Assembly (NCBI GenBank): GCA_017654855.1
Contig: CM030338.1
Coordinates: 3,348,001-3,412,000, forward strand
DNA length: 64,000 bases
From: Podospora anserina
Lineage: Eukaryota
Direction of reading: 5' to 3'
The stretch's first letter is position 1, and each line of letters begins with the position of its first letter. The translations under genes were made by a program, and so were the position numbers. The notes beneath the pieces are model-generated. The model was not told the DNA's origin, did no database searches, and worked only from the letters and a program-made list of their open reading frames with translations. Of this stretch, positions 60,413 through 63,866 are shown piece after piece.

Positions 60413-63007
60413 ATGCCGGCGACAATCGTTGACAGCCATAGCATACCGGCTGTCGCCAAAGCTGGCGAATTTCTTCGCCAGCTTTTAGAACATGCCGAAA
60501 CCGTCAAGCGAACTTCGTCAATAGAACCACCACTTATCGAATCCCACTTTGATGATCTTCGCGGTCGAATGAACAGCGTATACGATGAGGAGCCTATGGA
60601 CGATTCGAGCGAGGCGAAGACGGCGCGTTTCGCCATCATCGAGACCGCTGTGCGCGATACATTCAAATATTTGGTGGTGAGTCGGACGATACACACTTGA
60701 GTTCTCGAATGTATGCTCACACCATGTAGTCAAGAGCATCGATCGATTCACCCGAGTTCGTCAAAGTTTGGAACCTCTTCGACATCCTCTCTATCCTCTC
60801 CGACAGTGAGCTTTGCGACCCTGCCCTTCTGCTGTGGCTTGTGGAGGAATTACTCGATAGCCAGACAGTGGCCGGTTGCCGTAAGGTCTTTGACTTCCTC
60901 GAGTCGCGCCGCGAAAGGATCACAGCGAAGCACTTTAAGCAAAAACAGCTCGTCATTCTTCGAACCTGCAATGAGCTCTTACGGCGTCTGTCCAGGGCTC
61001 TGGACCCAGCATTCTCTGGTCGAGTCTTGATCTTCATGTTCCAAAGTTTTCCCCTGGGGGATAAAAGCTCGGTCAACTTGCGGGGAGAGTTCCATATTGA
61101 GAACGTCACCACTTTCGACCAGATCCCGGCAAAGACCGACGGGGATGAGGACAAGATGGATGTGGACACGGATGTCGGCACAACTGGTGACGGTTCACGG
61201 AGAGGCAGGTCCAACGATGTCGACACAAAAAAGAAGGCGCTGGACCCAGATGCTCTGTATCCAATTTTCTGGGGGTTGCAGGAGTTTTTCAACCAGCCAA
61301 AGCTCCTTTTCGAGGCCAGTCATTTTGCCTCGTTCAAGTCCGGGCTCGAGGCCACCATGGCTACCTTTTTGAGCATGAAATTTGAACAGCCACCCCGCGT
61401 CAAGGAAAGGCCAGACAGGCCAGTCGAGGAGCCGAAACACGCCCTCAAGCGAAAGCGAGAAGAGAGCAACGATGCTCTCTCTAGCGGCTTCAACCCCAAA
61501 TACCTTACCAGCAGGGATTTGTTCAAGCTTGAGATCAGTGATCTGACATTCCGGCGGAATATTTTGATCCAGGCACTCATCATCATGGAGTTTCTGCTTG
61601 CTCTTTCACCAAAAGCAAAAGAGAAGCTGGCCACCGTAAAGGTGCCAAACAAGTCTGTCACTTACTCGGAAAAGACACTGAGTGAAGAAGACATCAAATG
61701 GGTTGTGGAGACGAAGGAGTCCATCAAATCATACCTCAAACTCGGCCCAGAAGGACCACACTTTTGTCGACTTGTCGAAACGGTACTTTCAAGAGATAAG
61801 AACTGGGTGCGGTGGAAAGTCGAGAATTGTCCTCCGATCGAGCTGCCGCAACTGTCGCCAGACGTCTTTGTCGAAGCCAGAACCAACGCCGGAAAACTCG
61901 CGACTACCAAGCGGCTACGACCTACCCCTATGGGCTCTCTCAATCTAGACTTCCTCGAGGATGATGACGAGGAAAGAGCTCTGAAGAAGCTCAAGGACTG
62001 CCACCGCTACAAAGTTCCTAGTCTCGACAGCTACAAAAAAGGAATAGCCGATGATGACTTCGAAATCGGAATGCCAACAAACAACGATTCCAAGACGGCA
62101 GCTATTGAAGGCAAGGCCAGTAAGGCTTGGCGGGCGCTGAGAATTGCGAGCAAGAGCAAGCTGGTTCTCTTTGACAAGATCGAAGATGACGACAAGATTG
62201 ATGTCATCTTTGAAGAGCTACCTGCTGAGAAAGACGAGGATGATCAAGAAATCACGAATGGCGAAACCGCCTTCCCCGAGGATAGGAGGCCAATTGTGGT
62301 TGTGGACGCTGGTAAACATTCTCGGGCTGCTACAGGTCTTGCAAAGCAGCTCTATGCGCATCATCCGAAAACGTTTACCAAGGTGGCCGTCCATGTAACA
62401 CGCAAACCGGCAGAGGGCGAAGTAAACGGGAAGGACTTTCATTTTGTTGATACCCAGGCTTTCAACATGATGCGGGACGGAGATCAGTTTCTCGAGTTCA
62501 GCGAGGAGGGTGATGACACTCACGGCACAAGTAGGAAGGTGGTGGATGCCATCGTCGACAACGATAGGGTTGCCGTGATGGAGATGACTTTTGAGGTAAG
62601 CTTCCAGCATGTCCTGAACACATGTTGCTGGCATGTGTACTAACATTTCATTACAGGCTGCGCAGCAGGTCAAGGACAATGGCTATGATGCCAGATTCAT
62701 CTTCATCCAAGCTCCTGCTCCCGAGGTATGGGAGGGCCAACTCAAGGAGAACGGCCTGTCTGAAGAACAAGTGCAGCAAGCAATCAAGGCGGCTACAGAG
62801 GCGGCAGAACACGCCAAGTCGTCGCCAGGGTTTTACGAAGCGGTGGTGGATGCAGAGTATCAGGCCTTGGAGACGACGATTTTTGGCGCGGAGATTGGGG
62901 CAGATAGTATGGAGGCTGGGGCCCCGGTCGTGACAGACGAAGGCGATGGGAAGAAGGAGGAGGGTGATGGCGATGTTGCCATGGATGATGCGGTGCCCTC
63001 GTCGTAA
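60413..63007 (+). CDS. HPR1: THO complex subunit Hpr1/THOC1 with a C-terminal guanylate-kinase-like domain
   Basis: Exons 60413-60676, 60730-62595, 62657-63007. THOC1 motifs LRTCNELLRRLS, FPLGDKSSVNLRG, FNPKYLTS, RDKNWVRWKVENCP, AWRALR. GK motifs TRKPAEGEVNGKDFHFV and RFIFIQAP. Confidence 0.92.
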
Positions 63008-63866
63008 TTTTATCGCATCTAGCCGGTGTGGCTGCCTTGTCTTGTTACTAGCTGTCAAATGAATGATACCCCATAGCAACTATTACTTGTTTACTTCTGG
63101 ACTCTCGGGTACCGGTGCCGCGGTGTTCAACCATCATCGCCCTTACCATCTGGACGGTGCATAGATACAGGCCTTGAGGGATGATAAACAGACCTATCGA
63201 CCATCTTGAGACCCGGCCGACAATTCTGAGTCCAATGATTCTTGTTCAACCACTCTCGCTATTTTGAAGGCCGATTGACTGTCTTTTGGGTCTCGTCGAC
63301 GACATGCAGGGTTGTGGTGCTCCTGCTGGTTGCTGTTTGGGGTCGGTGATGCTGATATGGTTGGAAGGCTCCACCATCGGGGACCGCGATCGCTAGGTGG
63401 TCATCATTTGATCCAGACTTCAACGCCAACGATCTTCTCTTACCTTTGCTGATCAATTCTAATCGTCACTCGCTCACTAACCCTGGGCGGCATCTCTTTC
63501 TTTTCTCAAACGTTGCACCCCGAGCCTTCCATTCATTCTTCAACCCAGTCTCCATCGCTATCGAGAGCACACAGCCGCACGATGGAACATCTTGTGCAAA
63601 TCCTATAGCCAAGTTGCATACTCCACGACAGGACAACCATCAATTCTGGATTCCAAAATCCAACAAAATTCCAAAGCAATCAGGACCTTCTCAGAATTTG
63701 ATCTGTCAATCTTCTTCGACATAAGCGGCTCAATTGGACAAGTTATCTTGTCACCCACGTGACACCACCGACCGCTCGTGGAACTTGTGTGAACGGCTTT
63801 CTGGTACGTGAGCAGTGATGATGATTATCATGTCAACGTTCACTCGCTAATCATCCGGGTAGGTAA

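Follow-up and report, generated by a model that had tools for sequence, protein, structure and literature searches.

A THOC1 fusion protein of Podospora anserina carries a guanylate kinase fold that has probably lost its catalytic activity

In the 64,000-nucleotide stretch of Podospora anserina DNA analysed here (contig CM030338.1, positions 3,348,001 to 3,412,000; hereafter the window), a spliced gene on the plus strand, with its ATG at 60413, encodes an 826-aa protein in which THOC1/Hpr1 is followed by a C-terminal guanylate kinase (GK) fold. Having lost the P-loop, the hinge serine and the catalytic arginines, this domain is very probably unable to phosphorylate GMP. Our preferred account, to which we assign a probability of roughly 0.56, is that it acts as a folded pseudo-enzyme docking module on the THO complex that arose independently of the animal MAGUK proteins. 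The fusion itself is not a discovery: MoGuk2 of Magnaporthe (Pyricularia) oryzae (MGG_06394, 810 aa), described as a new fungal guanylate kinase family (Cai et al. 2017, PMC5732230), has the same efThoc1 plus GK domains and a similar length, so this architecture was already known, and the window gene belongs to that published family. The architecture is also annotated automatically in databases. What appears to be new, as read from the sequences, is the stepwise death of the enzyme across lineages and its conflict with the published activity, neither of which appeared among the matches listed in a literature search of sources other than subscription journals; for a pseudo-enzyme or THO reading of the family, the matches listed in that search comprised only Cai et al. 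and papers citing it.

Gene structure and predicted fold

The efThoc1 match covers profile positions 1-476 of 490, and Guanylate_kin is matched in the same frame (E 4.1e-15), with the last exon supplying the remainder of the GK profile; a Pfam scan of the protein returned these two domains only, with no PDZ and no SH3 (Table 1). Transcript evidence was drawn from four of 24 listed sequencing runs, three of which, from three studies, were guessed by the tool to be RNA, and consists of assembled contigs rather than long reads. Each of the three RNA-like runs yielded a single contig that lacks both introns and spans THOC1, the GK domain and at least about 90 bases beyond the stop codon; both introns were unspliced in the fourth run, and no further splice joints were listed in the four. 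The contig from one RNA-like run (X3; window 62229-63400) extends beyond 63400, and those of the other two studies end at 63099-63101; the extension may be a longer 3' end or an overlap with a neighbouring transcript.

Table 1. Features of the THOC1-GK gene in window coordinates
Feature	Position	Strand	Basis
Exon 1 (ATG; residues 1-88)	60413..60676	+	RNA-like splicing; N-terminus agrees with homologues
Intron 1, 53 nt, GT..AG	60677..60729	+	spliced out in 3/3 RNA-like runs
Exon 2	60730..62595	+	THOC1 domain and first half of GK in one frame
THOC1/Hpr1 helical domain (efThoc1, PF11957)	60766..62250	+	Pfam E 1.6e-144; human THOC1 chains E 2e-37
KRKR, which we take to be a candidate nuclear localisation signal	61447..61458	+	K328-R329-K330 kept in at least 90% of the alignment
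Acidic flexible linker, THOC1 to GK	62215..62271	+	pLDDT <50 at residues 586-599; 29% mean identity, Sordariales
GK-like domain, residues 607-786, split by intron 2	62284..62884	+	Pfam PF00625; Foldseek
Degenerate P-loop, no GxxxxGK	62305..62337	+	motif scoring across aligned GK domains
GMP-binding lobe, best-conserved part of GK	62362..62529	+	72% mean identity, 40 Sordariales
RDGD motif, fusion-specific, helix end in GMP lobe; candidate binding surface	62473..62484	+	DGD counts
Intron 2, 61 nt, GT..AG, within GK domain	62596..62656	+	spliced out in 3/3 RNA-like runs
Exon 3	62657..63007	+
Lid, zero arginines	62711..62824	+	mean identity 27%, on a par with the linker
Acidic disordered tail and stop codon	62885..63007	+	frame reading; structure model

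The initial annotation had proposed that the THOC1 frame runs uninterrupted into a GK-like region, and this holds: RRPIVV begins at position 62284, within the frame and exon that also hold THOC1, the motifs it quoted lie where it placed them, and the RNA-like contigs do not end before the GK region. The intron said to join the two domains does have GT..AG ends and is spliced out in the RNA-like runs, but it lies inside the GK domain, and many related loci show a break at the matching GK profile position (~105). The end it gave for the feature, 62900, falls past the fold, which stops near 62884, with the frame running on to the stop at 63007. Mis-joined genes or a read-through artefact were ruled out, as the junction lies inside one exon and both domains occur in 119 of the best 120 of 1388 homologues.

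The closest named protein among those best 120 homologues, from Podospora comata, is 99% identical, and its AlphaFold2 model (53-sequence alignment) was used for structure. Residues 601-790 are predicted to fold with pLDDT mostly at 73-87, and the best Foldseek match of the GK domain is yeast Guk1 (1gky; target TM 0.86, rmsd 2.1, E 2.5e-11). In the model, then, the GK fold is retained, in agreement with the original assignment of the region, and the pTM of the single-chain model (0.34) is too low to fix the arrangement of the GK domain relative to the THOC1 body.

Loss of catalytic residues

As reference we used human GMPK, for which the accessible portion of PMC12297293 gives S37, E72, T83, D103, R41, R44, R148, Y53 and Y81 as GMP contacts and S13, K17, S18, R133, R137, R148 and N171 as ATP contacts, and reports no significant activity for S37P, R41A, R44A, E72A, K17A and R148A. 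The human residues were located via yeast and Podospora Guk1, using the spacing between motifs rather than a direct alignment. On this mapping the window protein keeps two of 11 core residues, three of nine GMP contacts and none of the scored ATP-site residues, the lid arginines R133, R137 and R148 and also N171 being all lost. In the GMP lobe, R646 and E677 are kept, as is T688, another GMP contact; the hinge serine has become V642, and A649, F658 and H686 stand in place of arginine, tyrosine and tyrosine. The replacements noted earlier (PA for PR, DF for DY, HGT for YGT) and the degenerate P-loop are thus correct, and the list was incomplete, since the hinge serine, three lid arginines and the adenine-binding asparagine are gone as well. 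Set against the human mutants, these losses argue well for the pseudo-kinase status that had been proposed.

Class and order assignments in what follows are our own, presumed from the species names. An alignment of 223 GK domains from named species (62 stand-alone Guk1 and 161 fusions, of which 13 are from Leotiomycetes and 148, the window protein among them, from Sordariomycetes), which leaves aside proteins lacking species names and the GK-less P0073, shows that retention differs by lineage. Of 11 core residues, Guk1 proteins keep 10-11, Leotiomycete fusions 7-11 (all 11 in nine of 13), Xylariomycetidae 4-8, Glomerellales 5-6, Hypocreales 3-7 and Sordariales 2-6, with medians of 11 in Leotiomycetes, 7 in Xylariomycetidae, 6 in both Glomerellales and Hypocreales, and 4 in Sordariales. 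The P-loop GxxxxGK[STGA] is present in 62/62 Guk1, 13/13 Leotiomycete and 28/28 Xylariomycetidae copies, most of the latter also having both tyrosines, and in 0/45 Sordariales. In yeast numbering, R147 is found in 62/62 Guk1, 11/13 Leotiomycete fusions and 0/148 Sordariomycete fusions; among the latter, R136 is retained in three, R42 in 13 and hinge S35 in four, the hinge position being proline in 16, and none of the 148 combines two or more of R42, R136 and R147.

Lids of 18 residues or fewer occur in 21/45 Sordariales and 9/45 Hypocreales. A gene-model error was ruled out as the source of the lid deletion for seven loci, two of them near-identical, in which it is visible in genomic DNA; in the protein set, one or more of the short lids (P0035) does come from a truncated gene model.

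Leotiomycete copies look like intact enzymes by sequence, and for the nine orthologues with all 11 core residues activity is plausible. The catalytic arginines are partly lost in two Leotiomycete fusions, P0114 (Rutstroemia, 7/11 core residues) and P0448 (Chlorociboria, 9/11), so decay has also occurred inside this class. Two near-identical loci, L058 and L079, keep a Leotiomycete-like SHTTRxPR with a broken P-loop and two lid arginines lost; activity may have disappeared here a second time, independently. Podospora pseudopauciseta has a separate Guk1 (P0307) whose motifs are intact.

Distribution and origin of the fusion

A second search, started from a Gaeumannomyces orthologue, found both domains in 120/120 listed matches, and together with the 119/120 from the window protein this rules out a Podospora-specific oddity. 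The named carriers are Sordariomycetes and Leotiomycetes. A set of 150 representatives at 50% identity contained 22 with a GK match, and much of the remainder consisted of fragments; 30 of the 150 were looked up, and all seven that bear a GK domain are Sordariomycetes, whereas of the 23 that lack it, 12 carry an organism name and none of these 12 is from Sordariomycetes or Leotiomycetes. These named relatives, which include no Eurotiomycete and no budding yeast, have THOC1 alone and range from Macrophomina and Massarina to Saitoella. The earlier description of the fusion as lineage-specific therefore holds for two fungal classes, as a survey of sampled architectures, and fails as a claim of novelty, the fusion having been published as MoGuk2. 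In 80 metagenome loci, GK follows THOC1 in 39, 16 are complete without GK, and 25 are cut short; at the 16, where THOC1 is complete and 700 bases or more beyond it were scanned in the three forward frames, an annotation gap was ruled out as the cause of GK absence outside the two classes. One listed Sordariales THOC1, P0073 (Apodospora), is annotated without GK, the sole such case, which is either a true loss or a gene-model error.

In phylogenies a branch with strong support (100/99-100) sets the fused GK domains apart from Guk1, and 42 fused rows, including the window and P0406, lie opposite Guk1 across a 100/100 branch. The fused domains may belong within or beside Pezizomycotina Guk1. A clade of fused domains with Sordariomycete and Leotiomycete Guk1 was not rejected (AU p 0.44, with P0375 left out and four domains as outgroup); a GUK1 duplicate in the Leotiomycete/Sordariomycete ancestor is the putative source of the GK domain. 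P0375 itself, a Guk1 attributed to Elaphomyces granulatus, clusters with its counterparts from Podospora and Triangularia and not with other Eurotiomycete Guk1 (97/92), a possible contamination or mislabel.

Upstream of the gene lies Aquarius (a spliceosomal helicase by Pfam; window 55988-59939, minus strand), in head-to-head orientation and with its inferred start codon about 470 bases from that of THOC1. Of 41 related loci with 2 kb or more of upstream flank, 31 show the pairing again, which suggests that these two mRNA-processing genes have long shared a promoter. Aquarius is head-to-head upstream in 22/24 fused and 4/11 unfused loci with that much flank, so the THOC1 locus predates the fusion and the GK domain was added there.

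What has been conserved, and a proposed explanation

Measured against 40 Sordariales at greater distance, the window protein shows 69% identity over the THOC1 core and 72% over the GMP lobe, with 60% in the next core strands, 40% in the P-loop region, 27% in the lid and 22-29% in the linker, loop and tail. The GMP lobe is conserved as strongly as THOC1 itself, and R646, H643, E652 and G655 are almost invariant in this comparison. A DGD motif is found in 140/148 Sordariomycete and 12/13 Leotiomycete fusions and in 0/62 Guk1; its presence in both fused classes and absence from Guk1 indicate that it arose with the fusion, before the loss of catalysis. The window GK domain carries a net charge of -15, as against a mean of -4 for Guk1.

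We propose the following course of events. The gene would be this fungus's THOC1/Hpr1, by orthology a scaffold subunit of the THO mRNA-export complex. In the Leotiomycete/Sordariomycete ancestor, a guanylate kinase copy would have been added to the protein's C-terminus at the existing THOC1 locus. As the sequences show, Leotiomycete copies have retained the full catalytic set, Sordariomycetes have lost the hinge serine and catalytic arginines, and Sordariales have lost the P-loop as well, often with the lid; GMP phosphorylation is presumably supplied by the separate Guk1. Selection would then maintain the core fold and GMP lobe, one invariant arginine and the fusion-specific acidic RDGD. The acidic GK domain, held to THO by a flexible linker, would most likely dock a protein partner; the candidates are a basic factor of mRNPs or of chromatin and some portion of THO. 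The steady erosion from order to order counts against this docking-module account, as it fits slow decay too, and so does P0073, the Sordariales protein annotated without the domain.

Published activity and competing explanations

The published work treats MoGuk2 as a purine-pathway enzyme and did not assay it for membership in THO. From its organism, length and domains we take an 810-aa P. oryzae protein to be MoGuk2, although, as the representative of a cluster, it may differ from the studied allele; over 813 columns it is 48% identical to the P. comata protein. It retains the P-loop GxxxxGKS, which the window protein lacks, a variant feature that does not define orthology, and has four of 11 core residues, being without S35, R42, Y51, Y79, D101, R136 and R147. 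In PMC5732230, GDP reached 6.72 with MoGUK2, against 3.54 with MoGUK1 and 2.92 with vector, in a heterozygous yeast guk1 diploid; the deletion mutant had about 60% less GDP and GTP and more GMP; GDP rescued it partly, and ATP rescued it as well as GDP; and a P-loop deletion allele failed to rescue growth. The activity evidence comprises HPLC of extracts and partial GDP/ATP rescue, with no purified-enzyme assay, and the main text does not examine catalytic residues, the GK alignment being in Supplementary Figure 1. Higher GDP in yeast, lower GDP and GTP in the mutant and the failed rescue by the P-loop-deletion allele count against a docking module, and the sequence does not explain the yeast result. 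In the rice blast fungus, removing the entire GK domain had a worse effect than removing the P-loop only, which fits a non-catalytic role. The published view of MoGuk2 as a second guanylate kinase that is active could draw on these indirect in vivo data and on the nine Leotiomycete orthologues with a complete core, yet we consider it very improbable for the window protein, given its two core residues, missing P-loop and arginine-free lid, the four core residues of the Pyricularia orthologue, and an experimental case built on a heterozygous diploid and on ATP rescue equal to that by GDP. Non-catalytic binding of GMP, GDP or a related nucleotide, by which the guanine-nucleotide level would tune THO, is in keeping with the altered guanine nucleotides of the published mutant, the wide retention of the contacts R646, E677 and T688, and the P-loop and tyrosines of the Xylariomycetidae copies. 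Such nucleotide sensing had been suggested in the initial annotation; in the window protein the ATP site is gone, six of nine GMP contacts are replaced and the domain is strongly acidic, and in human GMPK single mutants at S37, Y53 and Y81 each cost more than 10-fold in affinity (accessible portion of PMC12297293), so that we judge this reading quite improbable.

Two further explanations dispense with both catalysis and nucleotide. The domain could be vestigial or purely structural, decaying but kept because its fold stabilises the end of the protein, as the fall of the median core count from 11 through 7 and 6 to 4 and the frequent short lids of Sordariales might suggest; against this stand a GMP lobe conserved like the THOC1 core, a DGD motif that is new with the fusion and kept in 152/161 fusions, and a GK domain missing from only one of the 120 listed homologues, and we hold the idea to be improbable. 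It could instead read phospho- or acidic peptides in the manner of MAGUKs, with the domain in an open conformation and its former pocket for the GMP phosphate as the binding site. The available part of PMC9005747 gives R568, R571, Y580 and Y609 as the phospho-pocket of PSD-95, and an arginine equivalent to R568 is present in 145/148 Sordariomycete fusions, where the hinge serine is also gone from 144 and the MAGUK-type proline is found in 16. The window protein, however, keeps just one of the four pocket equivalents, all four are found together in only 4/148 fusions, and the domain has a net charge of -15; a MAGUK-style phosphopeptide pocket is incomplete here, and this explanation is unlikely. 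The docking of a protein partner on a catalytically dead GK domain is the account that we favour.

Implications and comparison with known systems

A wider picture, which we offer tentatively and at somewhat less than even odds, is that a fungal guanylate kinase became a protein-interaction domain in an independent parallel to the animal MAGUK event, with its stages still alive. Leotiomycetes would have a working kinase on an mRNA-export complex, Xylariomycetidae would have only the P-loop, Sordariales would be without it, many Chaetomiaceae would be lidless and some copies would carry the MAGUK hinge proline, while the shared DGD surface would bind one conserved mRNP or chromatin partner. If this were true, the published enzyme role of MoGuk2 would be a THO phenotype. 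The analysis questions the assignment of MoGuk2 as a purine-pathway enzyme, whose guanylate-kinase claim is repeated in the accessible part of a 2024 review (PMC10879430), and many database entries named guanylate kinase would be THO subunits with a probably dead domain. The fusions may also provide, in saprobic fungi that are experimentally tractable (Podospora, Sordaria and Chaetomium), a naturally occurring series from enzyme to pseudoenzyme for comparison with the reconstructed MAGUK transition, and an accessory module on THO that is invisible to budding-yeast and human structures.

Human THOC1 ends in a death domain, and neither it nor budding-yeast Hpr1 has a GK domain, unlike the window protein. 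The helical domain is homologous to that of THOC1/Hpr1 of THO/TREX, with the match to human chains found in 7apk and 7znk, and the accessible text of PMC7744094 equates THOC1 with Hpr1. Fungal Guk1 shares the fold of the fused domain and is about 50% identical to a Leotiomycete fused domain, but differs from the window fusion in its near-complete catalytic core and lack of DGD. The GK domains of MAGUKs (PSD-95, DLG and CASK) likewise have the fold without catalysis and a replaced hinge serine, within a PDZ-SH3-GK architecture that the window protein does not share. In the available part of PMC4718807, GK interaction domains are stated to be absent from fungi, and the change of the hinge serine to proline turns enzyme into scaffold in the animal lineage; the fused fungal domain scores nearer to GK enzymes than to MAGUKs, which argues for an independent event.
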